From a virus (lineage: Duplodnaviria; Caudoviricetes), in IMG/VR virus record IMGVR_UViG_3300033067_001029, positions 1 through 55,457 of that record: a DNA stretch of 55,457 nt, one strand, 5' to 3'. A program made the translations under genes and the position numbers. This document shows positions 2,952 through 53,322 of the stretch, piece by piece. The notes under the pieces were generated by a model. It was not told the DNA's origin and made no database searches. It saw only the letters and a program-made list of their open reading frames with translations. Every line of letters starts with the position of its first letter. The first letter of the stretch is position 1.

Positions 2952-3791
2952 GTGAACGAAGACGTGCCCTCCCAGTCCTCGCCCGGCGCGAGGATCGAGC
3001 CCAAGTCCGTCGCCAAGGTCGTCACCCGCACCTTCTCCCCGTCGTACGAAACATCGATCGGCCTCCAGAACGGGGCGAGGATCGACCCCGTCCCCGCCCC
3101 GTGGGGGGAGAACCACGCGACGACGGTCTTCATGTCGAACTGGTGGCGGGACAACTTCGTCACGCCCGCATCGTGCATCACCTACGACAAGGCGGAGTCC
3201 CTTCGCACGGGCAAGATCTACATCCCCCGGGACAAGCCGTACCGGCTCGTGATGAACTTCGAGGACAGCCGGGACTCGTGGGCGGCGTGGCCGTTCGAGG
3301 AGATGGAGCGGTACCGGGACGAGATCAAGAAGGCGTACCCGCACCTGACGATCTCGGCGTACGTCGCTCAGGCGTACAACCTCCTCTCCGACTCGTCGAA
3401 GTTCGCGGTCTCCCGGATCGAGATGCTCCGGAAGTTCGCGTCCAAGTTCGACGAGATCAGCCCTTCGCTCTACTACCACGAAACGGACGATGTCACGGTC
3501 GACTGGTCGAAGGCCCCGGGGGAGGCCGTGCTTTCGATGCTTCCCCAGTGGCGGGTGATGCGGGTGTGGGAGCGGTCGATCGCCCCCGGCAAGCCCCTCT
3601 CCCCGTGCGTCTGGTGGTTCGTGACCCACCGGGGGTACAAGATCGTCACGCGGGACCAGTTCTGGAAGCTCCAGGTCGGGGCGGCCCGCTCCTCCCCGCA
3701 GGCGAAGTCGGTCATCCTTTGGGGGAACGTCGCGAGCCTCGGCGAGCAGCGCATCTTCGACGCCGGGGCCCGCCCGGTGATCTCCGGCTAG
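2952..3791 (+). CDS. Putative glycoside hydrolase, GH56/hyaluronidase-like TIM barrel
   Basis: LVMNFED, YPHLTISAY, ISPSLY and VILWG occur in the same order as the GH56 motifs (VIDWE, P..WG.Y, LYPSIY, IVIWG). Confidence 0.45.
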   Translation: MNEDVPSQSSPGARIEPKSVAKVVTRTFSPSYETSIGLQNGARIDPVPAPWGENHATTVFMSNWWRDNFVTPASCITYDKAESLRTGKIYIPRDKPYRLVMNFEDSRDSWAAWPFEEMERYRDEIKKAYPHLTISAYVAQAYNLLSDSSKFAVSRIEMLRKFASKFDEISPSLYYHETDDVTVDWSKAPGEAVLSMLPQWRVMRVWERSIAPGKPLSPCVWWFVTHRGYKIVTRDQFWKLQVGAARSSPQAKSVILWGNVASLGEQRIFDAGARPVISG

Positions 3792-3807
3792 TTTCCAGTA
3801 GAAACAA
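3791..3807. repeat. Dispersed palindrome GTTTC-N5-GAAAC, first of 15 copies
   Basis: Copies start at 3791, 10721, 14313, 17781, 23406, 27026, 29804, 31712, 35319, 39063, 40535, 43617, 45772, 50501, 53290. Confidence 0.9.
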
Positions 3808-3844
3808 GACGCGACCGGGACTCCCCCGGACCCGCTTGCCCAGG

Positions 3845-3875
3845 GTCGGCCGCGATTGCGGCCGACTTCCTTTTT
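3845..3875 (+). terminator. Rho-independent terminator
   Basis: GTCGGCCGC-gatt-GCGGCCGAC followed by TTCCTTTTT. Confidence 0.75.
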
Positions 3876-3904
3876 GTCTATAGTGGCCCGACCGGAGGTC
3901 CGTC

Positions 3905-4276
3905 ATGCCGAACCCGATCGCCTGGAAGAGTCCAAAGCGACCGTGTACCGCGAAGGTGTGCGGCCTCGTTGTTCCAAGGGCAATGGTCACGGAGCCCGGC
4001 CGGGACGTCGACGTCGAGGTCACGCCGTTCTGCGGCAAAGAGCCGTGCAGCATGACCGTGGCCGCGACCGAGCGGAGTTCAATCGACCAGCTCTGTCGTC
4101 AGGCGGAGATTGCCGCGTCGATCCAGCACGTCGAGCGCCGGGCGTGCAAAGAGTGCCACGAGGCGTTCTTCCATGAGCTTTCCCGGGACGAGAAGAGGTG
4201 GCTCTACGCGAGCGACCCGAAGCTCGGCCCGGTCATCGGCCTCAACGTTGAGGGGGATTCCGAGGGGGTCATCTGA
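3905..4276 (+). CDS. Hypothetical Cys-rich (Zn-binding) protein
   Basis: Several Cys pairs including CKEC; GGAGGT RBS. Confidence 0.6.
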   Translation: MPNPIAWKSPKRPCTAKVCGLVVPRAMVTEPGRDVDVEVTPFCGKEPCSMTVAATERSSIDQLCRQAEIAASIQHVERRACKECHEAFFHELSRDEKRWLYASDPKLGPVIGLNVEGDSEGVI

Positions 4277-4776: not shown

Positions 4777-5373
4777 ATGGACCCCCGCAAGGCCACTTAC
4801 CCGCTTCAGTGCTTGATCCCGTGCTGGCTTGGCGGGGAGGGGTTCATCTCCGGGTACCCTGTCCTCGCCGTAGTCCTCCGCGAGGCCGGGTCCGTCTCTC
4901 TCGGGCTCCACGCGCTCTTCGACCGGATCCGGAGCGCCCAGCCCAAGGGGGACGCCCAGCCGAGGCTCGTCGCGTTCATGGGGGACGAGCGGTATTTCGA
5001 CGATCAACTCCTCATGCTCGTTCGGATGCGGCTCTGCCTTCCCTGTTACGCCGAATACTGCGGGGAGCGGCCGATGACGGACCGCTTCGGGATCATGCCC
5101 CGGTGGGACCACGCAGCGATCCGCCTTCGCAACACCCGCGTGACCATGTCCGGCGGGCTCTTGTTCCACTCCGTGGTCGTCCCGGCCCCGGACCACCCCG
5201 GGGATCTCATCAGCCTTGGCAGGCAGATCGACCGCGCCGGGTTCAAGGTCTCCCGGTACGTCTCCGAGTCCGGGCGGTCCGACCAGTTTGACGCGAAGAT
5301 CGTCCGGGCCGCCGCCGGGTCCGGGTTCCGCCTCACCCGACCGCTCTCGAAAGAACCACTCCCCATTGCATGA
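4777..5373 (+). CDS. Hypothetical protein
   Basis: Fills the gap before terminase; ATGA overlap with terL. Confidence 0.55.
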   Translation: MDPRKATYPLQCLIPCWLGGEGFISGYPVLAVVLREAGSVSLGLHALFDRIRSAQPKGDAQPRLVAFMGDERYFDDQLLMLVRMRLCLPCYAEYCGERPMTDRFGIMPRWDHAAIRLRNTRVTMSGGLLFHSVVVPAPDHPGDLISLGRQIDRAGFKVSRYVSESGRSDQFDAKIVRAAAGSGFRLTRPLSKEPLPIA

Positions 5374-6833
5374 TCGGCCAGTCGTTTCATTCCCCGAAGG
5401 ACTTGCTCGGTTGCTCCCCGATCTCCCCTTTCGTTGAAGAGACGAAGGACGACGTCGAAGAGAGGGAGCCCCGGGAGTTTCACGTCCGCCCCAACAGCAT
5501 CCCGCAGTACGAGTTCGTCTCGGACCTTGAGACCCCGCTCGTTGCGGCGGTCGGCGGGATCGGCTCCGGGAAGACGACCGGGCTCGGGTTCTTCATCGTC
5601 GTGCAGATGTACGCCGAGATGGGGAGCGGGACGATCGGAGGCATCTTCGCGAACACCTACCGGCAGCTTGAGCAGACGACCCTCCCGGGCCTTTGGGCGG
5701 TCTTCGAGAGCATGGGCTTGGAGGACGGGATTGATTACGTCTACGGGCGCGAGCCCCCGAAGGACTGGGCTGGGTTCCGATCCCGGTTCAAGAAGCACAC
5801 GGGCGTGCTCTCCGTCCGCCAGTGGGGGCAGGCCGTTGTCCGTTCGCTGGAGAACTTCAACTCGATCCGTGGCCTCAACCTCGGCTGGGCCGCGATCGAC
5901 GAACTCCGGGACGCCCGGCACGAGGCTTTCCTCGTCGTCCTGGGCCGCGTCCGGTGCCCGAAGGCCCGCCGACGCCTGATCCGGATCGCGACGAGCCCGT
6001 GCGGGTTCAACTGGATCTATACCGAACTCGTTGAGAACGCCGAGAAGATGCCTCCGGGGGCGGAGCGGCGGGTCGTCTTCATGCCCACGTCGTGCAACCC
6101 CGACCTCCCACCGGAGTACAACGAGACCCTTCGGGCGTCCTTCGGGGGCAAGTACGCCCAGCAGGAACTCGACGGGATGTTCGTCTCGACGACCGTGGGC
6201 GCGGTCTACCACGCCTTCAAGCGGGCGACGATGGTCAACTCTTCGGTCAAGGCCGACCCCGAGCTTCCATTCCTCGTGACGTTCGACTTCAACCGAAACC
6301 CCTACTGCGTCGAGATCGCCCAGGCCCAGCCGAACGCCTTCGGGGTGGAACGGCTCGTGGTTCTCGACGAGGTCGTGATGACCGAGGTCGGCACCGAGGA
6401 CGTCGTGCCCGAGGTTGCGTCGCGGATCAAGTCCCATCTTCCCCCGGACGTGCGGCCGATCGTCGAGGTCTACGGGGACCCGGCGGGCAACCAGAAGCGG
6501 ACCTCGGCGTCGTCGAACCGGTCCGACTACGACATCATCGACATGGAAATGCCCAAGTACGTCGGCCGGTACATCCCGATGTACCGACGCCGGGCGTTCT
6601 CGGTGATGGAGACGGTCAACGCCGTCAACGCGCTCATGCGTCGCGGGGGGTTCGTGATTCACCCCCGGTGCCGGAAGACGATCAAGGACTTCGAGTCGGT
6701 GAAGTGGAAGGAGGGGACCTCCGAGATCGACAAGGAGGACAAGTCCCTCACCCACACGTCCGACGGGGTCCGGTACCTGATCGGAGAGCGGTACCCCATC
6801 CGGATCAGCCGCCCCAGCAAACTCTGGACGTGA
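5370..6833 (+). CDS. terL: Terminase large subunit
   Basis: Walker A GGIGSGKT, Walker B WAAIDE, coupling motif ATSP; nuclease motifs FDFN, YGDPAG, HTSDGVRY. Confidence 0.95.
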   Translation: MIGQSFHSPKDLLGCSPISPFVEETKDDVEEREPREFHVRPNSIPQYEFVSDLETPLVAAVGGIGSGKTTGLGFFIVVQMYAEMGSGTIGGIFANTYRQLEQTTLPGLWAVFESMGLEDGIDYVYGREPPKDWAGFRSRFKKHTGVLSVRQWGQAVVRSLENFNSIRGLNLGWAAIDELRDARHEAFLVVLGRVRCPKARRRLIRIATSPCGFNWIYTELVENAEKMPPGAERRVVFMPTSCNPDLPPEYNETLRASFGGKYAQQELDGMFVSTTVGAVYHAFKRATMVNSSVKADPELPFLVTFDFNRNPYCVEIAQAQPNAFGVERLVVLDEVVMTEVGTEDVVPEVASRIKSHLPPDVRPIVEVYGDPAGNQKRTSASSNRSDYDIIDMEMPKYVGRYIPMYRRRAFSVMETVNAVNALMRRGGFVIHPRCRKTIKDFESVKWKEGTSEIDKEDKSLTHTSDGVRYLIGERYPIRISRPSKLWT

Positions 6834-8830: not shown

Positions 8831-10720
8831 ATGGCGAAGCGTCCGTCCATCCCGACTCTCGCCGGGGACATCCTTGACCTCCGGGCCCGCCTGATCGCCC
8901 GTGAACAGCGGATCGAGTCCGAGGTCTACGCGATCCTCCAGTCGATGCTCGACGAGTGGGAGCGGGAGGTCCGCCGGATCCTTGGTGGCGGGTACCGTGG
9001 CACGGTCGAGAGCGCCGTCGCGGGCCGCCGGGCCGTCCTGCTCGGGAGTCTCCGAAAGATCACCGAGCGGGAAGTCCAGGCCGTGCTGGGGATCCTCGGC
9101 TCGGAGGTCGCCGGGGTCTACCGGGACAACGTGTACCGGGTCGCCTCCGCCCTCTCCGGGATGCGGGCCGCGTCGATGACGTCGTCCTCCGTGTCCTTCG
9201 CCGCGATCGACACCCCGGCGATCAAGGCGGCGCTTGCGCGCAAGATTCCCGCGATCTCCGAGCTTCGGGCGATCGCCGCGATCCCGGCCCGAGTTGAGAG
9301 CCTCATGCGGAAGGACCTCGCCCGGGCGATCGCGGACGGGTACCGGGTCGACCAACTGGTCTCCCAGTGGAAGAACCGGGTCGGGGCCGGGGCGACGGTC
9401 CCGCAGGTCCGGGCGCTCGCCCGCACGGCCGTCATGACGGCCTCGAACAACGCCCACCTCGACACCTACCGCAAGAACCGGGCCCTTGTGCCCCGCGTGC
9501 GGTGGGAGGCGACCTTCGACCGGAGGACGTGCATGCGGTGCGGGTCGCTCCACGGGAGGGAGTTCACCCTTGCCGACGCCCCGCCGATCCCGGCGCACCT
9601 CAACTGCATCCTCCCGGGGAACCTCGTCTTACGGGCTTCTGTTCTTGCCGCCGCGAAGTCTCTGTATCGAGGCCGCGTCGTTGAAGTACGAACGGAGGGT
9701 GGGTGCCGGATCTCCGTTACCGAGAAGCACCCGGTACTGACTTCTCGTGGATGGATACGCGCGTCGGAGGTCCGCCGAGGAGATGATCTGGTCAACCACC
9801 CCGGGTCCGAGCGGGAATCTTCGGGGGTCGACCCACACGATCACAATGTCCCAACCGCGATCGAGGAGGTATTTCGTTCGCTTGAAGAATCGGTCGGCGT
9901 GGGCTCCGCTCGCGTGCCACTTTCCCCCGAAGACCTCCACGGCGACGCGGACGGGGTCGAGGGAGAAGTCCACGTTGTATGGGCCGACGGCGGCGTTCCG
10001 GGTGTGGGGCACACCTCGGGCCGCGAGCATTTCCGAGACCGCTTCCTCGATCGGGCTGCGATGATCGAGGGAACGGAGCCTCTGCCTTCCGGTCGCGATC
10101 TTGATGCGATGCTCGAACGACTGAGGCTTTCCGCGTACCGCGTTATGGGCGGCCTCGGTGAGTCGGAGTCGCTCGGCCTTGGTCGCCTTCGCCATGCGTG
10201 TGAACATTGCGGCGGACCTGTTTCTCGGAACTACTCCGTTGGCGATCAGTCTGCGTCGGATAACGCCCCTATCGCACCCGAAGAGTTTCGCGATCGACTG
10301 CTCGCTCTCCCCTGCGGCGTATCTCTTGATTGCGTCGTCGACGTCGATCACTCTTCGTACTCGGGGCATGTCTACGACCTCCAGACGGTTTCGGGGACGA
10401 TCAACTGCGGTGGAGTGATTATACACAACTGCCGGTGCGTCCTGCTGCCCGTCTTCGCGGACCCGTCGCTCAACTCGGCCGTCCACGGCATCGGGGCGTA
10501 CCAGTCCCCGACGGGCGGCACCTACTTCCGCAACAAGGACCGCGACTTCGAGAAGTTCCTCCGGTCCCGGACGCCGGACTTCCGGGCGGACTTCTTCCCG
10601 TCGGAACTCAAGCGGAAAGCCTTTGAGTCCGGCCGCCTGTCGCTGGCCGACATGATCTCCCGGGACGGTTCGATCAAGACCGACGCCGAGGTCCTCCGCC
10701 TTCTTCGCCGACGACCGTAG
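8831..10720 (+). CDS. MuF/SPP1 gp7-like head morphogenesis protein, intein-containing
   Basis: RALARTAV, WEATFDRRTCMRC.LHG, and a PAHLN/CRC motif interrupted by the intein. Confidence 0.9.
   Translation: MAKRPSIPTLAGDILDLRARLIAREQRIESEVYAILQSMLDEWEREVRRILGGGYRGTVESAVAGRRAVLLGSLRKITEREVQAVLGILGSEVAGVYRDNVYRVASALSGMRAASMTSSSVSFAAIDTPAIKAALARKIPAISELRAIAAIPARVESLMRKDLARAIADGYRVDQLVSQWKNRVGAGATVPQVRALARTAVMTASNNAHLDTYRKNRALVPRVRWEATFDRRTCMRCGSLHGREFTLADAPPIPAHLNCILPGNLVLRASVLAAAKSLYRGRVVEVRTEGGCRISVTEKHPVLTSRGWIRASEVRRGDDLVNHPGSERESSGVDPHDHNVPTAIEEVFRSLEESVGVGSARVPLSPEDLHGDADGVEGEVHVVWADGGVPGVGHTSGREHFRDRFLDRAAMIEGTEPLPSGRDLDAMLERLRLSAYRVMGGLGESESLGLGRLRHACEHCGGPVSRNYSVGDQSASDNAPIAPEEFRDRLLALPCGVSLDCVVDVDHSSYSGHVYDLQTVSGTINCGGVIIHNCRCVLLPVFADPSLNSAVHGIGAYQSPTGGTYFRNKDRDFEKFLRSRTPDFRADFFPSELKRKAFESGRLSLADMISRDGSIKTDAEVLRLLRRRP
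9629..10369 (-). CDS. Antisense HTH + NUMOD3-like + Vsr/DUF559 endonuclease nested in the intein (246 aa)
   Basis: SPIEEAV...GPYNVDF...VAVEVFGGKWH...RTKYLLDRGWDIVIVW; GGAGGT 7 nt before the ATG; TATAAT at 10423-10418. Confidence 0.85.
   Translation of the reverse strand: MPRVRRVIDVDDAIKRYAAGESEQSIAKLFGCDRGVIRRRLIANGVVPRNRSAAMFTRMAKATKAERLRLTEAAHNAVRGKPQSFEHRIKIATGRQRLRSLDHRSPIEEAVSEMLAARGVPHTRNAAVGPYNVDFSLDPVRVAVEVFGGKWHASGAHADRFFKRTKYLLDRGWDIVIVWVDPRRFPLGPGVVDQIISSADLRRAYPSTRSQYRVLLGNGDPAPTLRSYFNDAASIQRLRGGKNRSP
10377..10423 (-). promoter_or_regulatory. Antisense -10 box and Shine-Dalgarno for the nested endonuclease
   Basis: + strand ATTATA (10418-10423) reads TATAAT on -; ACCTCC (10377-10382) reads GGAGGT; no consensus -35. 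Confidence 0.7.
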
Positions 10721-10786
10721 GTTGTTTCTGCTAGAAACAACGACCGCCCGCGTGACGCCGTGGGCGACCCGTGGTAGGATTGCCGC

Positions 10787-12225: not shown

Positions 12226-12253
12226 TTGACAGAATCTTGAGCCCGGAGATAAT
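12226..12253 (+). promoter_or_regulatory. Sigma70-like promoter for the major capsid gene
   Basis: TTGACA-N16-GATAAT; same layout at 16407. Confidence 0.75.
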
Positions 12254-13264: not shown

Positions 13265-13304
13265 GGACCCGGCGGGAACGGACCTCGCCGGGTCCTTTGT
13301 TTTT
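13265..13304 (+). terminator. Rho-independent terminator after the capsid gene
   Basis: GGACCCGGCG...CGCCGGGTCC followed by TTTGTTTTT. Confidence 0.8.
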
Positions 13305-14143: not shown

Positions 14144-14974
14144 ATGCCGAAGTCCGTCAAGAGCCGTCCGAAGATCACCATCAAGGCCCCGTCGAAGGTC
14201 TCCGCGAAGAAGACCGCGCCCGAGAAGGCGTCCGCCGAGAAGGCCGAAACCGGGAAGCCCGAGAACCCGAAGGCCCCGAAGATCACCATCAACGGGGCGT
14301 CGGGCCGGTCCGTTGTTTCCGCCAGAAACAAGGCCAAGCCCGCGAAGAAGGCCCCCGAACCCGCCGTCGAAGCGGCCGACCCGCCGCCGATCGAGACCGA
14401 GGCCCCCATGCCCATCCGCCGGACGCGCGTCCGGCGCGAGGACATGCCCGCCGAGCCCGAGCAGAACGAGGACGCCCCCCGCCGCAATACGACCGTCGGA
14501 TTTGTTCCCCGGGCCGCCCGGAGGACCCGGACGGGGTCGACGGAGGAGCGGGCCGGGGCCCACAACCCGGTCGAGTCTGGTTCTCGGTTCGTGCGGATGC
14601 TGAACCGGGACCGCCGCGTCGTGGCCGTGATCTCCAACTTCGTCCCGGAGCGGCTCACCGAGGGGTACGTCTTCATCGAGGGGGAGCCCGTCATCCCCAC
14701 GACGAGCGGCCCGGAGGATTCCTGCCCCGGCATCAAGCGCCCCCGGGCCCGCGATTACACCCACGCTCAGAACGTCTTCGACGCGATTGAGTTGTGGCGC
14801 GACGCCATGCTCGACGACCTTGAGGTCATGTCCCCGGAGTCGCTGCAGGGCCGGAACGGAGACGCCTTGATCCGCCGCCTCACGAGCATCCTGGAGAACC
14901 CCTCCTCGCTCGGGATGGTCTACGGAACGGCCCCGGGGTCCGAGGCGGCGAAGGCGATCGGGTACAAGTCCTGA
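14144..14974 (+). CDS. Hypothetical protein with K/A/P-rich N-terminus
   Basis: GGGAGA RBS; low-complexity basic N-terminal half and globular C-terminal half. Confidence 0.65.
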   Translation: MPKSVKSRPKITIKAPSKVSAKKTAPEKASAEKAETGKPENPKAPKITINGASGRSVVSARNKAKPAKKAPEPAVEAADPPPIETEAPMPIRRTRVRREDMPAEPEQNEDAPRRNTTVGFVPRAARRTRTGSTEERAGAHNPVESGSRFVRMLNRDRRVVAVISNFVPERLTEGYVFIEGEPVIPTTSGPEDSCPGIKRPRARDYTHAQNVFDAIELWRDAMLDDLEVMSPESLQGRNGDALIRRLTSILENPSSLGMVYGTAPGSEAAKAIGYKS

Positions 14975-17577: not shown

Positions 17578-17781
17578 GTGACCACCCCCGAGGAGTTTGC
17601 GAGGCTGCCGGTCAAGTGGGTCACGGTCCTCCTCGAAGAGAGCGTGATCGTGCAGCGGGAGGCGGAGATCCGGGCGAAGGGCGGGAAGGTCGAGCCCGTC
17701 CCGGAGTACGAGGGAGACGAGCCGATCGACAAGCTCGCAAGGAGGTTCCGGGAGGCCGGGTTCCAGGTCGAGGGCGCGTAG
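17578..17781 (+). CDS. Tail assembly chaperone T-like segment (probable frameshift product)
   Basis: Frame is open upstream and reads DWARLIYFARKELGVTTPEEFARLP. Confidence 0.6.
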   Translation: MTTPEEFARLPVKWVTVLLEESVIVQREAEIRAKGGKVEPVPEYEGDEPIDKLARRFREAGFQVEGA

Positions 17782-17806
17782 TTTCCAGTAGAAACAAGGG
17801 CAAGGC

Positions 17807-23395: not shown

Positions 23396-23425
23396 CCCGC
23401 CCGGCTTGTTTCTAGGAGAAACAAC

Positions 23426-27017: not shown

Positions 27018-27047
27018 GCCGCCCGTTGTTTCTAGTGGAAACAAGCC

Positions 27048-29778: not shown

Positions 29779-29830
29779 TGGCGTGGCGGGAACGTCTCCG
29801 GTAGTTTCTACCAGAAACAAGGAGGCCCGC

Positions 29831-31515: not shown

Positions 31516-31712
31516 GCAACAAGGACGCTGCGGCGAAGATCACCGAGGCGATGGAAACGCTCCGCGAGGCGGAGCGGTCGATCGACCACGACCCGCACCG
31601 GAAGAACGAGCGGGTGATCCACCTGCTCCGGTTCATCGGGTCGCGCGTCGCCCGGAGGCTCGACCCCGACCTCCCCGAGCCCGACGTCTACCCTTGGCAG
31701 CGGCCCGCCTAG
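31512..31712 (+). CDS. Small hypothetical protein
   Basis: GGAGG RBS and ATGA overlap. Confidence 0.6.
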   Translation: MSNKDAAAKITEAMETLREAERSIDHDPHRKNERVIHLLRFIGSRVARRLDPDLPEPDVYPWQRPA

Positions 31713-31730
31713 TTTCTGAGAGAAACAAAG

Positions 31731-35118: not shown

Positions 35119-35748
35119 GTGGCCAAGAACGACATTACCTTTCGCTGTCCGAAGTGCCGCGATCGCGGGCATATCCCAACCCACGGGGGAGTGGTCCGGT
35201 GCGACTGCCTCCGCATGGAGATCAACAAGCGGGCCTTCATCGCCGCCGGAATCCCGGCGGCCGTGGCGTCCCTCCCTATCGAGGAGATCGCCGCGTCGGT
35301 CCCGCCGATGATGGGGAAGTTTCTGACGGAAACAAGGCGCGGGGACGTGTGGGTCATCGCGCCCCGGACCTCCCCGATGCTGGAGTTCGTGCTTGCCTAC
35401 GCCCTCTCGCTCCGGGCCGACCAGTTCTGCTCCGGGATCTCCCTGTCGAAGACGATCGACTCGCGGTTCGACCGAGAGGCGAAGGGCGTCGTCGACGCGA
35501 TGGTGTCGTCCTCTTCGACGCTCATATTCCGGATCGACGACGTCGGCGATCACATGAAGATTCAGAGTGTCATGGAGGAGGTCGTCGGGGTCCGGAGCGC
35601 GAACAAGGCGTCGACGATCTACGTCTCCGATGTGTCTATCGTGAAGCACACGGGCAGGTACGGCATCCACGTCTGCCGCTTCTTCTCCGAGTTCAACAAG
35701 TCCGCGTCGCTCAAGTCCGGCTTGACGGTCCGCCACCGACCCTTCTGA
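35119..35748 (+). CDS. DnaC/IstB-like helicase loader, degenerate ATPase
   Basis: CPKC..CDC Zn site and Walker B-like IDDVG; no GKT; precedes DnaB. Confidence 0.5.
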   Translation: MAKNDITFRCPKCRDRGHIPTHGGVVRCDCLRMEINKRAFIAAGIPAAVASLPIEEIAASVPPMMGKFLTETRRGDVWVIAPRTSPMLEFVLAYALSLRADQFCSGISLSKTIDSRFDREAKGVVDAMVSSSSTLIFRIDDVGDHMKIQSVMEEVVGVRSANKASTIYVSDVSIVKHTGRYGIHVCRFFSEFNKSASLKSGLTVRHRPF

Positions 35749-37213: not shown

Positions 37214-37215
37214 AG

Positions 37216-39025: not shown

Positions 39026-39095
39026 GCCAAGGAAACGGTACGGACGGGCCCCTAACGGGCCCTTGTTTCTACCGGAAACAAGCCCCCGGGCGGGA

Positions 39096-39202
39096 TATTC
39101 CGGGAAATATCGCCCCCCACGATAGGAAACAGTAGACACCGGCCGATTCTTGACGTATCCTATCGGTGCCGGGAGAGCCCCGGCTCAGGAGACCGCCGAT
39201 GA
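39096..39202 (+). repeat. 107-bp exact direct repeat (promoter-hairpin-RBS cassette), copy 1
   Basis: Identical to 43649-43755; contains TAGACA-N17-TATCCT, a CCGGG hairpin, AGGAGA and the ATG. Confidence 0.95.
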
Positions 39203-40500: not shown

Positions 40501-40552
40501 ACCACCGCCCCGGGCGGGGAGACCCGCCCGGGTCGTTTCCGGCAGAAACAAT

Positions 40553-40634
40553 CCGATTGGATACGCTAGACTTGCGGGGACTGGTAGCGTATCCTATCGG
40601 TACCGGGGACCCCCGGACAAGGAGACCGCCGATG
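40553..40634 (+). promoter_or_regulatory. Diverged third copy of the promoter cassette
   Basis: TAGACT-N17-TATCCT, inverted arms, hairpin, AGGAGACCGCCGATG. Confidence 0.85.
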
Positions 40635-42985: not shown

Positions 42986-42997
42986 AAGGAGACCGCC

Positions 42998-43612: not shown

Positions 43613-43648
43613 GGGCTTGTTTCTACGGGAAACAAGGGGGTACGCGAT

Positions 43649-43755
43649 TATTCCGGGAAATATCGCCCCCCACGATAGGAAACAGTAGACACCGGCCGAT
43701 TCTTGACGTATCCTATCGGTGCCGGGAGAGCCCCGGCTCAGGAGACCGCCGATGA
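43649..43755 (+). repeat. 107-bp exact direct repeat, copy 2
   Basis: Identical to 39096-39202. Confidence 0.95.
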
Positions 43756-44033: not shown

Positions 44034-44153
44034 CCAAACGCCCCCCGGCGGGAACGCCCGGGGGCGGATTCGGTGGGAGCCCCGCGTGTTGCGGGGCGAG
44101 TCGGACCAGGGCCCGCCCGGCGAGTTGAGAAGGGCCCGCATCGGAGACCGCAG

Positions 44154-45242
44154 ATGTCGAAGAAGAACGCCAAGTCCTCGAAGAAGACCGCGAAGAAGTC
44201 CCACGGGATCAAGGTCGTTGACGGAGACGAGTCCAACGCCCTCGACCCCCAGACCTCCTCGGAGACGACCGCCCCGGCGGAGACCGGCGAGGCCGCGTCC
44301 GCCGAGGGCGGGGTGGAGTTCGAGACGGCTCAGGACTACATGAGCGCCGAGTACCCGGTCGACAAGCTCAAGCTCAACGAGCTGCGGACGCCGACGGAGG
44401 AGGCGGTGAACGAGATGGCGAAGTCCATCCAGCGGGTCGGCCTCCAGAACGCGATCGTCGTCGACGCCAACGGGGAGGTCATCTCCGGCAACACCCGCGT
44501 GCTGGCCTTCCGCAAGCTCGGCCGGGCGACGATCCCCGCCCGCTTCGCGGTCGACGCGAAGGGGAACCCCATCACGAAGGAGGACGCCGCCGCGACCGTC
44601 GCGGGCCTCGCGGAGAACCTCGCCCGGACGCAGATGACGCCGGTCGACCTCGGCCGGGCCGCCCTCGACGCGCTCAAGCGGGGCGTGGCGGGTTCCGAGA
44701 AGGAACTCGCCAACAAGATCGGCGTCTCGACCCCGATCATCTCGAAGGCCGTCGCGATCGCGAACAAGGCCGCCGGTCCGGTCGCGGACTCGATCGCCTC
44801 CGGCGAACTCTCCCTCGACGCGGGCGTCGCGATCGTCTCCCGGTGCGCCTCGCACGACGACCAGCGGGTTGCCCTGGAGATGATCCGGGACGCCGTGAAG
44901 GGGAAGGGCAAGACCGGGAAGATCACGGTCGAGGACGTCGACGCCTCGGTCCCCCGCAAGTCGAAGGACGAGAAGACCGGCCGGGCCCGCTCCGGCCGCC
45001 CGGTCGAGAAGGCCCCGCTCCCGGCCGAGGCGACGAACGCCGAGGCGAGCGGAATCCGCGCGATGCTCCGGAAGACCTCCGACGGCGGGATGATGATCTG
45101 CCTCGACATCGAGATCCCGGTCGACGTGAAGTCCTTCGCCCGGTACGACCTCGAAGCGGCGGTTCAGCGGGCCCTCAAGAAGATGGACGACGGGACGGTC
45201 CGCAAGGAGCTTGAGGTCGCCAAGGAGCGGCTCAAGATCTGA
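44154..45242 (+). CDS. ParB/Spo0J-like protein with HTH
   Basis: SIQRVGLQNAIVV, ISGNTR, ENLAR and HTH ELANKIGVS..IISK. Confidence 0.85.
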   Translation: MSKKNAKSSKKTAKKSHGIKVVDGDESNALDPQTSSETTAPAETGEAASAEGGVEFETAQDYMSAEYPVDKLKLNELRTPTEEAVNEMAKSIQRVGLQNAIVVDANGEVISGNTRVLAFRKLGRATIPARFAVDAKGNPITKEDAAATVAGLAENLARTQMTPVDLGRAALDALKRGVAGSEKELANKIGVSTPIISKAVAIANKAAGPVADSIASGELSLDAGVAIVSRCASHDDQRVALEMIRDAVKGKGKTGKITVEDVDASVPRKSKDEKTGRARSGRPVEKAPLPAEATNAEASGIRAMLRKTSDGGMMICLDIEIPVDVKSFARYDLEAAVQRALKKMDDGTVRKELEVAKERLKI

Positions 45243-45287
45243 CCGGCCGGGTTCGACTTCATCGGCGCGTCGGTCGCGCCGTCTCCG

Positions 45288-45317
45288 CCCCGGGCGCGTC
45301 GCCCGGGGTTTTTCTTT
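45288..45317 (+). terminator. Rho-independent terminator
   Basis: CCCCGGGCG-cgt-CGCCCGGGG followed by TTTTTCTTT. Confidence 0.85.
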
Positions 45318-45341
45318 GGGCGGCTCGCGGGAACGTCCGGC

Positions 45342-45674
45342 ATGACCAGCACCGAGGCCAACAAGATTCTGGGCGCGATCGAGGAGACCGGTCGGTCGAT
45401 CCAGAAGCTCAGGACCGCGATCGAGGTATCCAGGTCCCGCGTCTCCGGTCTTCTCGACGAGGTCCGGGAGATGGGGGTCAAGCTCCCGAAGAAGCCCGCC
45501 GAGATCACCCCGTCGTACGTCTATGCGTGCGTCAGCGAGATCCGGAAGGAGTCCGAGCGGAGGCAGAAGGCCGTCGAGGCCGTCGTGGGGGACATCTCCC
45601 TCGCGATCAAGGAGGCGGACCGCAAGATCGAAGAGGCGGACGCTGCGGCGGACTCCGCGAGGGAGGACGGATGA
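45342..45674 (+). CDS. Coiled-coil protein (possible middle piece of SbcC)
   Basis: Heptad pattern; ATGA overlap with the SbcC C-terminal fragment. Confidence 0.6.
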   Translation: MTSTEANKILGAIEETGRSIQKLRTAIEVSRSRVSGLLDEVREMGVKLPKKPAEITPSYVYACVSEIRKESERRQKAVEAVVGDISLAIKEADRKIEEADAAADSAREDG

Positions 45675-46309
45675 GCAACCCCTCCGTCGAGGCAGCCAAG
45701 GCCCGCATCGCCGGGTACCACGGGCGTCTCGGCCTGCTCCGGAAGCAGGCCGTCGCCTCCCGGGATGCCGCTGTTTCTGCTAGAAACAAGGCCCGCACGA
45801 CCCAATGGGCGCACGACCTCCTGACGAAGCTTGCGGACCGGAAGCGGGAGGAGGTCCGGGTCCGCGTGGAGCGGATTGTCAACGCCGCGCTCCGGGCGGT
45901 CTTCGGCCCGTCGATCTCGTTCCGGTTCGAGGTCACGACCCTCCGGGGCGTGGTGGCGATCCGGCCCGAGGTCGGATTCTCCGTCCGGGGCGGCCCGGTC
46001 AACTTCGTCGGGGTGGATCAGGTGGCGGGCGGGGTGGTCGACGTCGTCTCCTTCGCCATGCGGGTCGCCGTACTGCTCTCCCGCCGCCCGATGCTGCGGC
46101 CGGTCCTCATCGCCGACGAGCCCCTCAAGCACCTTTCCGACGAGTACCTCCCCGCCGCCGCCGAGATGCTCCGACGCCTCGCGGACGAGTGCGGGCTCCA
46201 GATGCTTATCGTGTCGCATGAGCCTGACGTATCGCTCCGCGCCCACCGGGTGTTCCGCGTCACCCGTCCGGCGGGCGTGTCGGCCGTTGCCGTCGAGGAC
46301 CAGCCGTGA
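45671..46309 (+). CDS. SbcC/Rad50 C-terminal half
   Basis: Signature VAGG..DVVSFAMR, Walker B LIADEP, H-loop IVSH; no Walker A. Confidence 0.85.
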   Translation: MSNPSVEAAKARIAGYHGRLGLLRKQAVASRDAAVSARNKARTTQWAHDLLTKLADRKREEVRVRVERIVNAALRAVFGPSISFRFEVTTLRGVVAIRPEVGFSVRGGPVNFVGVDQVAGGVVDVVSFAMRVAVLLSRRPMLRPVLIADEPLKHLSDEYLPAAAEMLRRLADECGLQMLIVSHEPDVSLRAHRVFRVTRPAGVSAVAVEDQP

Positions 46310-48605: not shown

Positions 48606-49793
48606 ATGAAACCCAAGGACAAGAAGGCCCCACGGAAGTCGGCCGCCCCCGTCGTCGGTCTCGCCGCCGCGCTGACCGCCCTCCGCGACAAGCTCCCCGG
48701 CCGCGTCATGTTCGTCCCCCCGGCCTCCCGGGTGATCCCGATGCGGCACCGGGCGCTGGGGGCTCTCCTCGCGGGCCCGGAGAACCCCGGCCTGCCCTGC
48801 GGGAAGTTCATCGAGATCCTCGGGGAGGCCCACTCGGGGAAGACGACGCTGGCCTTCGCGATGGCCGACGCCGTCATCAACCAGCCCCCCGGGTCCCGGC
48901 ACGAGATCCGGGACCCGTCCGGCAAGGTGATCGAGGTCGACGCCCCGCGCCGGGTTCTCTATCTCGACTTCGAGCACTCGCTCAACATGAAGTACCTCCG
49001 GGACGGGATCCGCAACGCCGTCCTTGCGGACGTCGACGAGGGCGGAGTCGTCGCGAACGCCGACGCCGCGAACCTTTGGGTCCACCAGCCCGCCACGCTG
49101 GAGGAGGGTGCCGAGATCGCCGTCCAACTCATCGGGTCCGGCGAGTTCGGCATGATCGTGATCGACTCGATCCCCGCCATGCTCCCCAAGGAGGAGGCGG
49201 AGAAGACGATGGAGGAATCGACGGTCGGGAAGCACGCCGCCGCGATGGGGAAGTTCTTCCGCCGCACGACGGGCCTGACGTCCCGGTTCAACGTCGTGGT
49301 CGTCCTCATCAACCAGTGGAGGGACAAGATCGGGGTCGTCTTCGGGGACCCGCGCCGTTCCCCCGGCGGGAAGGCGATGACCTACTACGACTCCCTCAAG
49401 ATCGACGTCTCCGGCCCGAAGAACTCCCCGTGGTTCCCGCAGGGCGGGAAGATGGCGAACATCAAGGTCATGAAGAACAAGGTCACGGGGAAGCTCGGGA
49501 CCGTCTCGTATCACCTGGGGGCCGGGTGGGGGATCTCCCCGGAGGTCGAGTTGACGGAGATGATGCAGGCCGCCGGGCTCCTGAACTCGACGGGCCCGAA
49601 CCGGCCGGTGGTCGTCTTCCCCAACTCGCCGAACCGGAGGCAGTTCGAGTCCCGCGATGCGTGGCTCCGGCACCTCCGGAACGGGTCCGACCGCCAGTGG
49701 CAGAGCCTGACGAACCAGTGCGTGAAGAAGGGCGTCTCGGTCATCGAGAAGCCGTCGCGATCGGCCTCCTCCTTCGATGCGGATGGTGACTGA
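48606..49793 (+). CDS. recA: RecA/UvsX recombinase
   Basis: GEAHSGKTT, YLDFEH, IVIDSI, INQWR and SPGGKA motifs. Confidence 0.93.
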   Translation: MKPKDKKAPRKSAAPVVGLAAALTALRDKLPGRVMFVPPASRVIPMRHRALGALLAGPENPGLPCGKFIEILGEAHSGKTTLAFAMADAVINQPPGSRHEIRDPSGKVIEVDAPRRVLYLDFEHSLNMKYLRDGIRNAVLADVDEGGVVANADAANLWVHQPATLEEGAEIAVQLIGSGEFGMIVIDSIPAMLPKEEAEKTMEESTVGKHAAAMGKFFRRTTGLTSRFNVVVVLINQWRDKIGVVFGDPRRSPGGKAMTYYDSLKIDVSGPKNSPWFPQGGKMANIKVMKNKVTGKLGTVSYHLGAGWGISPEVELTEMMQAAGLLNSTGPNRPVVVFPNSPNRRQFESRDAWLRHLRNGSDRQWQSLTNQCVKKGVSVIEKPSRSASSFDADGD

Positions 49794-50809
49794 TGACGAA
49801 CCGGCCCGCGAAGATCTCCTCGGTGTCCCTCGACGACGTCCTGTCGTGGCGCGGCGCGAGGCTCGACCTCTCCCCGGGGCTCAACGTCGTCGTCGGCCCT
49901 TCCGACTCGGGCAAGACGAACGTGTACCGCGCCGTTAGGGCCGTCGTTGAGAACGCCCCCGCCGACCGGTTCGTCCGGATCGGGTCGACGGCGGGGTCCG
50001 CGACGATCACGTTCGACGACGGGGCGTCGGTGTCGCTGGGCAAGGGGAAGGGCAAGGACTCCGCGAACACCTACACGGTCGGCACGGCCGACCCGTCCGG
50101 GGGGACGCGGGAGCGTGTGTTCCAGAAGGTCGGCGCGGACTGCCCGGCGGAGGTCGCCTCGGTCCTCCGGCTCGGGCCCGTCGACCTCTCCGGGGCGGAG
50201 GCGGACATCCACTTCGCGTCCCAGCGCGGCCCCGCGTTCGGCGTGGACGTCCGCCCCGGGGATCTCGCCCGGATCATCGGTTCGGTCTGCGGGCTCGACG
50301 CCGTCTATTCCGCCCTCTCGGAAGCGGAGCGGTCCCGGAAGTCCGCCTCGATCGAGGACGCCCGGGCCGACGCCGCGTTCAGGCTCCAGCGGGCGAAGTA
50401 CCGGGCCGCCGATTCCGTGCTGAGCGCCGATCAGGCCAAGTCGTACGCCGACCTGCTGACCGAACTCAGCGCCCGCCACGACGAGACGACCAGGGCCGCT
50501 TTGTTTCTAGAAGAAACAGCGGGGGAACTCACGTCGTACGTCGACGGGCTCGCCGTGCGGACGTCCGCCCTTGAAGAGGCGACCCGCTCGTATGACGAGG
50601 CGGTCGTGCTTCGCCAGTCGTTCCTCGACGGGCGGCGGGCGGTGGATCGGCTCGCGGAGATCTCCGACGAACTCTCGGCGGCCTCTCTGGACATCGAGGA
50701 GGCCGAGGAGTGCCTCATCGCCAAGGTGAAGTCGCTCGCGGACCTCGAAGCGAAGGCCCATCAACTCACGAAGACGAAGTGCCCGCTCTGCGGGAGGAGT
50801 GGACGATGA
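49793..50809 (+). CDS. SbcC/Rad50 N-terminal half ending at the Zn hook
   Basis: GLNVVVGPSDSGKT, Q-loop FASQ, coiled coil, C-terminal CPLCG. Confidence 0.85.
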   Translation: MTNRPAKISSVSLDDVLSWRGARLDLSPGLNVVVGPSDSGKTNVYRAVRAVVENAPADRFVRIGSTAGSATITFDDGASVSLGKGKGKDSANTYTVGTADPSGGTRERVFQKVGADCPAEVASVLRLGPVDLSGAEADIHFASQRGPAFGVDVRPGDLARIIGSVCGLDAVYSALSEAERSRKSASIEDARADAAFRLQRAKYRAADSVLSADQAKSYADLLTELSARHDETTRAALFLEETAGELTSYVDGLAVRTSALEEATRSYDEAVVLRQSFLDGRRAVDRLAEISDELSAASLDIEEAEECLIAKVKSLADLEAKAHQLTKTKCPLCGRSGR

Positions 50810-51777
50810 GTCTCAAGAGCGTGTCCTTGCTCGCGTTCGGGGACCTCCACTATTCGTTCGAGCCCCCGGCCTCCCGGAAGCCCTCGTACCGGAAGGAACT
50901 CGACGACATGCTCGACGAGATCCGGGGTCTGGTGAAGCGGCTCGGGATCGGCGTCGTCCTGTCGGCCGGGGACCACTTCCACCGCAAGGGGCGGACGTCC
51001 CACGCCGAGGTCCGGGCGCTGTTGGCGAAGTATTGGGCGCTGAGCGGGGCGGCCGGTTTGTTCTTCTCGATCGCCGGGAACCACGACATGATCGGCCACA
51101 ACGCCGAGTCCGCGTCGGAGACCCAGCCGCTCGGCGTGCTTGCCGAGTCGAACGTCGTGAGCCTCCTCGGTGGGGACCCGGAGATCGTTGACGGGCCGGT
51201 TGCCATCTACGGGATCCCGTACCAGCACAACCTCACGCCGCACGCCGCCGCGTGCCTCCTCACCAAGAACCACCGGGCCCGGTTCGCCGCCGTCGTCATG
51301 CACGCCGACGTGCTCACGGACGCGGTCGCCCGCGCGTACGTCTCCGCGATCGAGTCCGCCTTGGGGATCCCGGTCGCGGTTCTCAACGGGCATATCCACG
51401 AGCCGATGCGGGTCATCGAGTGCGGGTCCTCTGTTTACGTCGGGCTCGGGTCCATCGCGCGGACGTCGATCGCGGAGCGGGGCGTCACCCCGTCCGTCGC
51501 GGTCGTGAGCTTCTCGGCGAAGGCCGGGATCCGGGTCAAGGACATCCCGCTCGCCTCCGCCCTTCCGGTTGCGGACGCCTTCGAGATTGACGCCGCGAGC
51601 GGGGAGCCGGTCAACGCCGACCTCGACAAGTTCGTCGAGCTTGTCGGGGGCGACAACGATGCGGCGGTGATGGACGTCCGCGCCGAGGCCCGCGAGCTTG
51701 GCGCTTCGCTCTCGATCCCGGAGCCCGGGATCGAGGAGGCGATCCGGCTGCTCGACGGGAAGTATGATTCGGCATGA
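50806..51777 (+). CDS. SbcD/Mre11 metallophosphoesterase nuclease
   Basis: GDLH, AGDHFH, GNHD and GHIH motifs. Confidence 0.9.
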   Translation: MSLKSVSLLAFGDLHYSFEPPASRKPSYRKELDDMLDEIRGLVKRLGIGVVLSAGDHFHRKGRTSHAEVRALLAKYWALSGAAGLFFSIAGNHDMIGHNAESASETQPLGVLAESNVVSLLGGDPEIVDGPVAIYGIPYQHNLTPHAAACLLTKNHRARFAAVVMHADVLTDAVARAYVSAIESALGIPVAVLNGHIHEPMRVIECGSSVYVGLGSIARTSIAERGVTPSVAVVSFSAKAGIRVKDIPLASALPVADAFEIDAASGEPVNADLDKFVELVGGDNDAAVMDVRAEARELGASLSIPEPGIEEAIRLLDGKYDSA

Positions 51778-52544
51778 CCCCTCCGAAGCGCCGTGCCGTG
51801 AACGCCCCGAAGACCGTCTCGCCGAAGAAGGCGGAGCCGAAGCCGACCCGCCGCCCGTACCAGAACCCCGCCGACCGGGTGTGCGTGAAGATGGGGCTCG
51901 CCCGCGTCGTCGGCCCCCGCGTGGAGTACGACTGGCCGATGATCGACGAGTTGTGGCTCGTCGACCCGGACAATACCATCCTCGGGTTCTGCAAGAAGTA
52001 CGACATCACGTACGCCCAGGCCCACAAGCGGCTCACGATGAGCGTGACCCGCAAGAAGGCGATCCAGGCCGTCTCCCGCAACGGGTACATGCTCGCCGTC
52101 GTGCGCGGGCTCCTCGCGTCGCACCACCGGGCGGCGCACGAGGACGCCGAGCGGTTCTCGAAGACAATCTCCGAGTTGACGGTGTTCTCCCACTCCGCCG
52201 CCGCGTTCGCCCGGGCCCGGATGATGAAGATGGGGCCCGGCGGGGAGGAGATGGTCAACGTCGACGCGAAGTCCTCCGACGTGGCGTACTACGCGAGGAT
52301 CGCCAGGGACGCGAGCGAGACCCTCCGGAACCTCCTCGAACTCAAGGTCAACGTCGATGGGACGGAGGAGCAGCGGCAGGAGATCGAGGGCATCACGATC
52401 GACGAGCCGAAGCGACCCAACGCGGGAACGTCCGGGCATGATGAAGAAGCCCAGCACGGTCAGCCCGAAGCGCCCGCCCAACCCACCGGCCCCGACGCCC
52501 AAGCCATCGTCGTCCGCCCCGATCCCGGAGTTCGTCCGGACTGA
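51774..52544 (+). CDS. Hypothetical helical protein (terminase small subunit candidate)
   Basis: HTH-like segment then helices; TATGAT-N5-ATG; function is inferred only. Confidence 0.45.
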   Translation: MTPPKRRAVNAPKTVSPKKAEPKPTRRPYQNPADRVCVKMGLARVVGPRVEYDWPMIDELWLVDPDNTILGFCKKYDITYAQAHKRLTMSVTRKKAIQAVSRNGYMLAVVRGLLASHHRAAHEDAERFSKTISELTVFSHSAAAFARARMMKMGPGGEEMVNVDAKSSDVAYYARIARDASETLRNLLELKVNVDGTEEQRQEIEGITIDEPKRPNAGTSGHDEEAQHGQPEAPAQPTGPDAQAIVVRPDPGVRPD

Positions 52545-53280
52545 GTACGACCACGCGATCGCGTCGTACCCGCTCGTCCGCATGCTCAAGAGCGTGCTCG
52601 TCTCCGTTCCCCCGGGCCCCGGGGAAGCCCCGATCGACGTCCGCGTCTCGACGAACAACCTCCACGCCGTGATTGTCGGGCAGCCGTTTACGATCCCGGA
52701 GGGCGTCGACCGCGATGGGTTCATCTTCCCGTACCCCGAGTGCGAGCCGAGGCCGTCCCGGTTCCTCGCGGAGACGATGACGTGGCAGAAGACGGAGAAC
52801 GCCGAAGCGTACTCGGTCGGGACCGGGTACAAGGTCTCCGAGGACGATGTGCGTGGGTCGCTCAAGCAGTGGGTGACGTGGCTGGCGAACTTCGAGAACA
52901 GTTCCCCGACCCTCCGGTTCGAGGTCTTCGAGGGAGGCCGGGACGTCGCCTTCATCGGGTTCAACCGGCAGGCGCTGCTCGACGTGCTGTGCCAGATCCC
53001 GGACGAGGGGATCGTGCTGGCGGTCCCGCTTATCGGCGGCGTTGGTCCGTGGCGGTACGCGAGCGGGGAGTCCGCCGTGTCGACCGGGTCCGAGGGGTCG
53101 TCCGCGCTCCTGACGGTTCGCTCGCCGCGCGGGGCGATCGACGCGAACTGGAGGATGGGCGTGTGCAACTCCGACCGAGGCCAGAAGCAGGCCGCCGAGA
53201 AGGTCGTCGCCGAGATCGGGTGGGTCCGCCGCGTGCTTTCGCACATCCGGAAGGTTGCGGCGGATGCGGTGCGGGGGTAG
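52438..53280 (+). CDS. Hypothetical protein
   Basis: ATG follows the GGGAACGT motif; typical codon usage. Confidence 0.65.
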   Translation: MMKKPSTVSPKRPPNPPAPTPKPSSSAPIPEFVRTEYDHAIASYPLVRMLKSVLVSVPPGPGEAPIDVRVSTNNLHAVIVGQPFTIPEGVDRDGFIFPYPECEPRPSRFLAETMTWQKTENAEAYSVGTGYKVSEDDVRGSLKQWVTWLANFENSSPTLRFEVFEGGRDVAFIGFNRQALLDVLCQIPDEGIVLAVPLIGGVGPWRYASGESAVSTGSEGSSALLTVRSPRGAIDANWRMGVCNSDRGQKQAAEKVVAEIGWVRRVLSHIRKVAADAVRG

Positions 53281-53322
53281 ACTACGGCTGTTGTTTCCGG
53301 TAGAAACAACGGGAGACCGCGC

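Follow-up and report, generated by a model that had tools for sequence, protein, structure and literature searches.

Evenly dispersed parS-like palindromes with switched arms in two related phage genomes as candidate binding sites of an orphan ParB-like protein

The IMG/VR virus record IMGVR_UViG_3300033067_001029 was analyzed over its whole length, a linear stretch of 55,457 bp (G+C content 67.7%, estimated to be 81% complete) that is called the window in the following. It carries 15 dispersed copies of a palindrome with the arms GTTTC and GAAAC. A collinear relative, the complete virus record G001 (88,798 bp, G+C content 63.7%), carries 31 copies of the same element, in which the arms differ in concert, G to A and C to T. 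On balance, we lean toward reading these palindromes as parS-type, sequence-specific binding sites for a protein on double-stranded DNA (dsDNA), namely loading or operator sites for the orphan ParB-like protein predicted from the gene at 44154-45242. As judged from the sequences, the sites very probably belong to a phage-encoded reader, and a role in partition is unlikely. The comparison at the DNA level covers these two genomes, and the site count for the window applies to the 81% of the genome that the record contains.

The pattern GTTTCYNNNRGAAAC had exactly 15 matches in the window, for which a mean of 0.01 was expected and none of 100 dinucleotide shuffles reached 15. The dispersed palindromes reported in a preliminary description of this DNA are thus real, and the mean spacing of about 3.5 kb given there was reproduced (3.54 kb). 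Allowing one mismatch to GTTTC-N5-GAAAC revealed no site in the window beyond the 15 (1.2 expected), and the absence of one-mismatch variants shows that the set is sharply bounded. Information content was high only from positions -2 to +16, giving the consensus TTGTTTCY-N3-RGAAACAA, in which two inverted 7-bp half-sites, (T)GTTTCY, flank one central base pair. No other conserved position was found between -40 and +60 of the sites. The first base 3' of the core is A in all 15 copies and the second is A in 14, whereas the base 5' of the core varies (T in nine, A in five, and C in one). The right arm, already described as nearly invariant, appears more constant than the left for this reason; a TAG stop codon overlapping the motif's first G accounts for three of the five cases with A before the core. 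Outside the palindromes, the pentamers GTTTC and GAAAC are rarer than in a first-order model (41 versus about 98 in total). Codon usage could be the cause, and no conclusion was drawn from this rarity.

Our own GC3-based gene calling yielded 59 genes in the window, all on the + strand, with a coding share of 95.3% and 4.7% non-coding DNA. Eleven sites proved to be intergenic (binomial P = 3e-12) and four to lie within coding sequences (CDSs; 14315, 35319, 45773, and 50503), as had been noted before. In so tightly packed a genome (95% coding), the packing alone can account for the location of a 19-bp AT-rich site between genes. Spacing is under-dispersed, with a coefficient of variation (CV) of 0.40 (P = 3.5e-4 when compared with uniform placement and P = 2e-4 when compared with sites drawn at random from the 58 gene junctions). 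Three sites overlap the TAG stop codon of the upstream gene, and 6 of the 11 intergenic sites are separated by 3-15 nt from the start codon that follows. A canonical parS was not found in the window, even at up to two mismatches. Compared with 16-bp parS sites clustered near an origin, the window sites are longer (17-19 bp), have one more base in the centre, and are spread evenly.

Homologues of 48 of the 59 window proteins are encoded in G001. The G-type sequence GTTTC-N5-GAAAC does not occur there, not even with one mismatch, but ATTTC-N5-GAAAT is present in 31 exact copies without any one-mismatch variant (consensus ATTTCATGGTGAAAT). Conversely, no A-type site exists in the window. The motif scan of a relative thus recovered the same element with its arms switched, and on these sequences the element is conserved between the two phages. 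The switch falls at base 1 of the half-site, one of the two bases reported to separate parS from the Noc site (PMC7383237). A concerted switch in all copies points to one trans-acting reader, the specificity of which differs between the phages. By our own gene calls, 27 of the 31 G001 sites are intergenic (P = 1.5e-15). Four overlap a TAA stop codon where the window equivalents use TAG, many lie 6-18 nt ahead of start codons, and the spacing is again even (CV 0.56, P = 1e-3).

The positions of the sites were also compared. By a strict criterion, 5 of 10 window junction sites precede a gene whose G001 homologue is likewise preceded by a site (2.7 expected, P = 0.08). The genes concerned are those for the tape-measure protein, DnaE, and the exonuclease as well as 3983-4276 and 53323-53931; three further matches were seen by eye when extra G001 genes were allowed. 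Two of the in-CDS sites, 3 and 9, are found at aligned codons in both phages (Table 1), and at these places the arm switch alters the protein (V to I and T to I, respectively). Sites that are paid for by residue changes indicate that the element is selected as a nucleotide sequence. The motif FLxET is kept in three more homologues of the site-9 protein, which fits a G-type site there as far as protein sequences alone can tell.

Some further features of the G001 sites were recorded. Three close pairs of sites occur at 23086/23122, 41603/41744, and 53808/53963 (36, 141, and 155 bp apart; sense-strand coordinates on the reverse complement of the record), and an additional inverted half-site stands upstream of the full site in each of three promoter regions (GAAAT-N7-ATTTC...GAAAT). 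A mini-open reading frame, ATG-AAA-TAA, within the sites was considered and rejected, as ACG stands at that place in seven of them.

The location of many sites at cistron junctions invokes a different explanation, in which the motif acts in mRNA as a small AU-rich hairpin bound by a protein or RNase and sets translation, processing, or stability. All sites are in a transcribed sense-strand context, the proximity to start codons and the overlap with stop codons described above would suit such an element, 26 of the 31 G001 sites are oriented with transcription, and a G to A switch coupled to C to T preserves base pairing. The predicted hairpins are, however, weak, ranging from -3.2 to -5.2 kcal/mol in the window (mean -4.5) and from -1.5 to -3.4 kcal/mol in G001 (mean -2.7). 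The arm sequence is identical in all copies, without copy-to-copy covariation, and positions 6 and 10 are not kept paired (in the window C.A in 5 of 15 sites and C-G in none; in G001 complementary in 19 of 31). An Rfam search of the window matched no family. Moreover, strong promoters and terminators exist apart from the motif, and an mRNA element would leave the even genome-wide spacing and the likeness to dsDNA sites of ParB proteins unexplained. We therefore consider a function at the mRNA level quite improbable.

The candidate reader, encoded at 44154-45242, is predicted to consist of a basic disordered N terminus, a ParB N-terminal domain, a helix-turn-helix (HTH), and a conserved C-terminal domain. 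It matches PHROG 4715, "ParB-like partition protein" (3.6e-18). In HMMER searches (phmmer and profile), Spo0J (1vz0), Noc (7nfu), and ParB (4umk) aligned with it from the N-terminal domain through the HTH, with E values of 4e-4 for the single sequence and 5e-7 for the profile. An AlphaFold model of the protein had a mean pLDDT of 65; its core, residues 61-270, mostly reached 66-89 per 10-residue block with a dip at about 141-160. Foldseek matched the model to Noc (3.5e-8), ParB-CTP, and KorB at E values of 1e-7 to 1e-8 over ~208 columns and, in addition, to the complexes 6s6h and 6y93 of DNA-binding domains with DNA. Noc is the best match in both sequence and fold. PF02195 is present on 11 of 12 family members according to precomputed annotation. 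The two hallmarks of the ParB/Noc/KorB family, an N-terminal ParB/Srx (CTPase-fold) domain and a central ParB-homologous HTH, were accordingly recognized, in line with the initial description of an HTH-bearing ParB-like protein. Of the CTP-binding motifs GERRxRA and ENLQR, the first has GNTR in place of GERR, with Gly112, Asn113, Thr114, and Arg115 invariant, and in the second (ENLxR) Glu154, Asn155, and Arg158 are kept.

Eleven homologues of the protein are 58-81% identical to it, the one from G001 being 65% identical. They belong to a distinct subfamily of 29 representative clusters at E <= 1e-30, with full-length matches that include the conserved C-terminal domain, and the recognition helices vary widely among the 29 representatives. 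The gene belongs to an operon that follows site 12 and a promoter of the sigma-70-like type, and the same arrangement is found in G001. A search of metagenome and genome collections with the family alignment found no locus, and a narrower alignment found nothing in IMG/VR; a 30-residue match of this narrower alignment in one metagenome-assembled genome was discarded. A second ParB N-terminal domain is encoded at 53910-55166, fused to an N6/N4 DNA methylase that is 73.5% identical in G001. This fusion type has been reported as typical of phages.

Neither ParA (PF13614 and PF01656) nor a tyrosine integrase (PF00589) was detected in the window or in the complete G001; controls for ParA were positive in 14 of 14 genomes, and those for the integrase were positive as well. 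The lack of both in the window, which had been pointed out before, was thereby confirmed. A ParA-binding motif LG[KR]GL, as defined in PMC12704722, was not visible in the N terminus of the ParB-like protein. Because neither genome contains ParA, the protein qualifies as an orphan ParB in the sense used in that paper. Orphan ParB-fold proteins are described there as common in phages and mostly without a known role (PMC12704722). The segregation role that had been put forward at the outset is unlikely because ParA and integrase are absent even from the complete relative.

The sites might also be addressed to a host protein, either a host ParB or another regulator, and the phages would then differ because their hosts differ. 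The arms of the window sites do equal those of chromosomal parS, and the difference in G+C content (67.7% versus 63.7%) suggests that the two phages may have different hosts. Against this speak the lack of any canonical parS in the window mentioned above and a centre that exceeds that of chromosomal parS by 1 bp. Chromosomal parS is, to our knowledge, shared almost universally, and a change from G to A between hosts would not be expected. A host reader is thus very unlikely.

Alternatively, the palindromes could be operators for some other dimeric DNA-binding protein of the phage, while the ParB-like protein has a task of its own, perhaps in conjunction with the ParB_N-methylase or some other enzyme. 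Many of the 48 proteins common with G001 are without family assignment, and the residue of the ParB-like protein aligned with the one that reads base 1 does not co-vary with the motif. Phage ParB-like enzyme activators with non-partition roles have been described (PMC13229309), and the small HTH protein KorA is reported to bind TGTTTAGCTAAACA (PMC11790492). On the other hand, among the scanned subset of window proteins the only other HTH-type candidates were a NUMOD3 protein and a sigma factor of the extracytoplasmic function (ECF) type, and the half-sites and their spacing are close to known sites of the ParB family. The enzyme-activating ParBs are described as being without an obvious DNA-binding domain (PMC13229309), whereas the 44154-45242 protein has one. 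Another phage protein as the reader appears rather unlikely to us.

Several sites are associated with promoters. The motif half-site AGGAAACA abuts the -35 element of two of three TAGACA-type promoters in the window, including 39133..39161, and three G001 sites lie exactly 12 nt ahead of TGGACA-N16-TATCAT. Some sites may therefore act as operators, whereas no promoter was found near 12 of the 15 window sites. This raises the question of whether the motif itself is a promoter element of the phage's own ECF-like sigma factor (42998-43612). Its assignment is supported by an AlphaFold model (pLDDT 77), for which by far most of the PDB matches listed were sigma factors, chiefly of the ECF type (best E 3e-4); a Pfam search of the protein gave no match, and the G001 counterpart is 35% identical. 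The sigma-like gene adjoins site 12, the right arm RGAAAC resembles ECF -35 elements, and three sites are located upstream of promoters. Nevertheless, there is no second conserved block at any fixed distance, indicating that the motif is not a promoter of this sigma factor. In addition, both arms are conserved to the same degree, six sites are followed by a start codon within 3-15 nt, and the distance between motif and promoter in the window is either 17 or 54 nt. We hold a sigma factor target to be the least credible of the explanations considered, with hardly any probability. The sites are not intrinsic terminators either: only site 10 of the 15 follows a terminator-like hairpin detected in the scan, and a GC hairpin ahead of site 11 was noticed by eye.

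Several observations weigh against the ParB-like protein as the reader. Any of the 48 proteins common to both genomes could be the binder. The location of many sites 3-15 nt ahead of start codons fits a role at the mRNA level too, and the strict test of shared junctions reached only P = 0.08. Palindromes of the TGTTT...AAACA type are also bound by HTH proteins other than ParB, as exemplified by the KorA operator given above (PMC11790492). The centre of the G001 site is conserved and asymmetric (sense strand ATTTCACCAYGAAAT), which a symmetric dimer does not predict, and none of the explanations offered accounts for the uniform orientation of 26 of the 31 sites relative to transcription (P = 1.9e-4). 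For the protein itself, the Pfam ParB_N score of the window homologue is below the cut-off (19.5 versus 26.3 bits), and CTP use is uncertain because the ParB box GERR reads GNTR. Finally, the co-variation of HTH and motif that the preliminary description had suggested examining held only in part. The predicted recognition helix does differ between the phages (GVSTPIISKAV in the window and GVSTSILNRSV in G001), but the residue aligned to ParB Arg173 and Noc Gln173 is Thr in both, so the known Arg/Gln rule cannot explain the arm switch. The helix differences (Ser/Lys versus Asn/Arg) are a candidate explanation of the switch only.

If the ParB-like protein is nevertheless the reader, the palindromes would be bound by a phage-encoded dimer, most likely the ParB/Noc/KorB-like product of 44154-45242, which would load at the sites and then spread or slide as ParB, Noc, KorB, and VirB do. 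With one site per ~3.5 kb, a spreading protein would cover the whole genome. Such coverage would serve to control or protect the genome as a whole, be it by transcription control or counter-silencing, shielding, or organization for replication and packaging. We infer that genome-wide loading for control, protection, or organization is the best-fitting mechanism. More tentatively, and with considerable doubt, we suggest that in a lytic-type lineage a ParB/Noc-like clamp without ParA has been converted into a coat of the phage's own genome, with site and protein co-evolving as private address codes. Loaded at parS-like sites ~3 kb apart, such a coat would extend along the entire viral chromosome and could counteract silencing by the host (e.g. 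through AT-binding nucleoid proteins), protect the DNA against host defence systems, or organize replication and packaging. Fast co-evolution would give sister phages mutually exclusive G-type and A-type sites, and the G/A switch would replay in a virus, through different recognition residues, the change of specificity from parS to the Noc-binding site (NBS). If the link between palindrome and ParB-like protein holds, ParB-type clamps can act on entire viral genomes in the absence of ParA. Nature would then offer a second, independent case of reprogrammed ParB-family DNA specificity, and orthogonal ParB/site pairs for DNA labeling could be supplied.

Table 1. Palindromic sites and other features of the window
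Feature	Coordinates	Strand	Context
Site 1	3791..3805		taGTTTCCAGTAGAAACaa; intergenic; TAG stop of gene 2952-3791 overlaps first G; G001 site at syntenic junction
Site 2	10724..10738		Intergenic; 3 nt past stop of 8831-10720
Site 3	14315..14329		Within CDS 14144-14974, translated V-S-A-R-N-K; A-type site at homologous G001 codons (ISPRNK)
Site 4	17781..17795		TAG stop overlap; 11 nt upstream of tape-measure start 17807; G001 also has a site ahead of its tape-measure gene
Site 5	23408..23422		3 nt ahead of GTG start 23426; centre AGGAG can act as ribosome-binding site
Site 6	27028..27042		5 nt ahead of start 27048
Site 7	29804..29818		12 nt ahead of 5'-3' exonuclease gene 29831; syntenic G001 site
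Site 8	31712..31726		TAG stop overlap; 4 nt ahead of DnaE-like polymerase gene 31731; syntenic G001 site
Site 9	35319..35333		Within CDS 35191-35748, translated (K)FLTET; A-type site at homologous G001 codons (VFLHEI)
Site 10	39065..39079		Downstream of primase gene; GC hairpin directly upstream; sigma-70-like promoter 54 nt downstream
Site 11	40535..40549		17 nt upstream of third promoter copy
Site 12	43619..43633		6 nt past sigma-like gene; upstream of promoter for operon with ParB-like gene
Site 13	45773..45787		Within CDS 45671-46309 (VSARNK); no site at homologous G001 codons
Site 14	50503..50517		Within CDS 49793-50809, a gene without G001 homologue
Site 15	53293..53307		15 nt ahead of start 53323; syntenic G001 site
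ParB/Noc/KorB-like protein	44154..45242	+	362 aa; alternative GTG start 44073; candidate binder
Putative ECF-like sigma factor	42998-43612		Directly upstream of site 12; language-model features 0.98 versus sigma-70/ECF clusters
Sigma-70-like promoter TAGACA-N17-TATCCT	39133..39161	+	54 nt downstream of site 10
Identical promoter copy	43686..43714	+	54 nt downstream of site 12; drives 43752-44033 and ParB-like gene
Third promoter copy TAGACT-N17-TATCCT	40567..40595	+	17 nt downstream of site 11
Terminase	5370-6833	+	

From left to right, the window encodes terminase, head, and tail proteins (including portal, Mu-F-like head protein, P22-type capsid protein, a 1,517-aa tape-measure protein, and other tail proteins), a SNF2 helicase with the 5'-3' exonuclease, a replication set (DnaE-like polymerase, DnaB-like helicase, and primase, besides a MoxR ATPase), an HNH nuclease, a VWA protein with RecA and an SbcCD-like pair, a RuvC-like resolvase, and the ParB_N-methylase. 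tRNA genes were not found. The Mu-F-like head protein (8831-10720) has 629 aa compared with 357 aa in G001, and its residues 269-533 match an intein-splicing domain (E 3.7e-8, just under the Pfam cut-off), so that it probably carries an intein insertion. The products of 45671-46309 and 49793-50809 weakly match, in Pfam, the C-terminal and N-terminal parts, respectively, of an SMC_N/Rad50-type ATPase head, and 49793-50809 adjoins the metallophosphatase gene 50779-51777. The two may represent a split or diverged SbcC, together with SbcD.

The promoters at 39133 and 43686 are contained in a 110-bp direct repeat (39096-39205 and 43649-43758, 99% identical) that comprises the sigma-70-like promoter, a leader, and the first ~13 codons. 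Due to this repeat, the genes 39199-40500 (MoxR ATPase) and 43752-44033 start with the same peptide. The third, diverged copy of the promoter region spans 40554-40607. Two identical near-consensus promoters, TTGACA-N16-GATAAT (12226-12253 and 16407-16434; 11 of 12 matches), lie ahead of the genes for the capsid and for a tail protein, and both genes are followed by strong hairpin terminators. The terminators are located at 13265-13295, 17030-17061, and 3843-3868, and these as well as the strongest promoters are unrelated to the motif. The capsid and tail promoter-terminator units are self-contained high-expression cassettes independent of the palindromes.

Named relatives of the window phage are distant, the nearest by DnaE being Streptomyces phages with 28-29% identity. 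A search with the DnaE protein found no relative in IMG/VR, and megablast of 17 kb of the window against phages gave no match. The first 2.9 kb of the window are without a homologue in G001, and ~26 kb of the latter (about 62.6-88.8 kb of the record), including genes for a PAS-domain protein, an NAD epimerase, and an FkbM-type methyltransferase, have no counterpart in the window. A capsid-based search yielded a distant relative with 48% G+C content that is related in the structural module only (capsid 53% identical); no dispersed palindrome occurs in the 17 kb of it that were examined, which says nothing for or against the element. Scans of IMG/VR for the G-type 19-mer and the A-type 17-mer gave, G001 aside, single chance matches in AT-rich contigs. 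Contig pieces of up to ~1.1 kb from a public run labeled activated sludge metagenome (X1) differ at few bases from window positions 26900-46000, indicating that a close variant of the window phage is present there. Among runs X1-X4, riverine and anaerobic digester metagenome runs held smaller shares of the words sampled from the same region. In the X1 variant, sites 8 and 9 are unchanged, with one and three differing bases nearby, and in the contig over site 7 the seven listed of eight substitutions as well as one inserted base are all outside the site. This variant is too close a relative to inform on site conservation.

The geometry of the palindromes has a precedent in the partition site of phage P1. 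The annotated box A2-A3 pair of P1 parS, ATTTCAAGGTGAAAT (ATTTCAA-G-GTGAAAT), has the same 5-N5-5 layout as the sites in the window and in G001 and agrees with the G001 consensus in 14 of its 15 bases. The P1 boxes are defined by inverted heptamers NTTTCAN on either side of a single central base pair, and these have their equivalents in the GTTTCY halves of the window and the ATTTCA halves of G001. The preliminary description was right that the window arms equal those of chromosomal parS, from which the window site differs by a centre one base longer, but the 5-nt centre is not an anomaly among ParB sites because the P1 pair has the same geometry. P1 parS is, however, a single cluster with box B and a site for integration host factor (IHF), serves a plasmid prophage, and works together with ParA, whereas 15-31 dispersed sites are found in the phages studied here. 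A box-B-like flank was not found between -40 and +60 of the window sites. P1 ParB aligned with the family profile in hhalign over the HTH stretch only, and weakly (probability 2.4%, E 0.02).

Like the window motif, the L5-type stoperators and the SopB sites of N15 are protein-binding sites in phage genomes. Both the stoperators and the N15 SopB sites IR1-4 are dispersed. N15 carries four of them (PMC7205306), but SopA is present and N15 is a plasmid prophage, whereas no ParA or integrase was found in the phages described here. The stoperators, to which the palindromes had originally been likened, are described as asymmetric, oriented, and bound by the repressor of a temperate phage (PMC4351075). 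This likeness did not hold, since the window site is palindromic and no tyrosine integrase was found; the orientation bias in G001 resides in the centre only.

Among cellular and plasmid systems, Noc of the Firmicutes resembles the phage system in being an orphan ParB paralogue without ParA that has many genome-wide sites (PMC7383237). The Noc site differs from parS at base 1 of the half-site, G to A, which is read by Arg173 in ParB and by Gln173 in Noc (PMC7383237). Noc is nevertheless of cellular origin and anchors DNA at the membrane, its 16-bp NBS is without the extra central base, and it reads A1 via Gln where both phage proteins have Thr. KorB of RK2 is a CTP clamp of the ParB family with 12 OB sites that silences promoters over long range from distal sites; unlike the phage protein, it also takes part in plasmid partition, together with IncC (ParA), and depends on KorA to lock the clamp (PMC11790492). 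No ParA was found, and no KorA equivalent was identified in the phages. VirB of Shigella is a ParB-like CTP-dependent clamp that loads at parS-like palindromes and acts in anti-silencing rather than partition (PMC10770331). It differs from the phage system by having few sites, being plasmid-borne in a bacterium, and having H-NS as a known antagonist.

In a survey of abstracts on phage ParB, parS, and CTP, no report was found of evenly dispersed parS-like sites together with an orphan HTH-containing ParB in a phage. The closest phage parallel is provided by the Cluster O mycobacteriophage Corndog, with 34 invariant copies of the 17-bp repeat TGTTCGG-N3-CCGAACA, many of them intergenic (PMC4351075), a number that we confirmed by re-counting. 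According to the same source, Corndog is not obviously temperate, encodes the ParB-like gp90, and carries repeats that have been unexplained since 2015 (PMC4351075). These repeats share with the window motif the 7-3-7 palindrome, the TGTT...AACA ends, and tens of copies with invariant arms. They differ in the sequence of the arms and in crowding to one end of the genome instead of being evenly spaced; hhalign detected no similarity between gp90 and the ParB-like family, and no relative with switched arms is described for them (PMC4351075). The present case ties a dispersed phage palindrome to half-sites of the ParB type, to an HTH protein of the ParB/Noc-like kind, and to two naturally occurring genomes between which every site is switched at one base pair.

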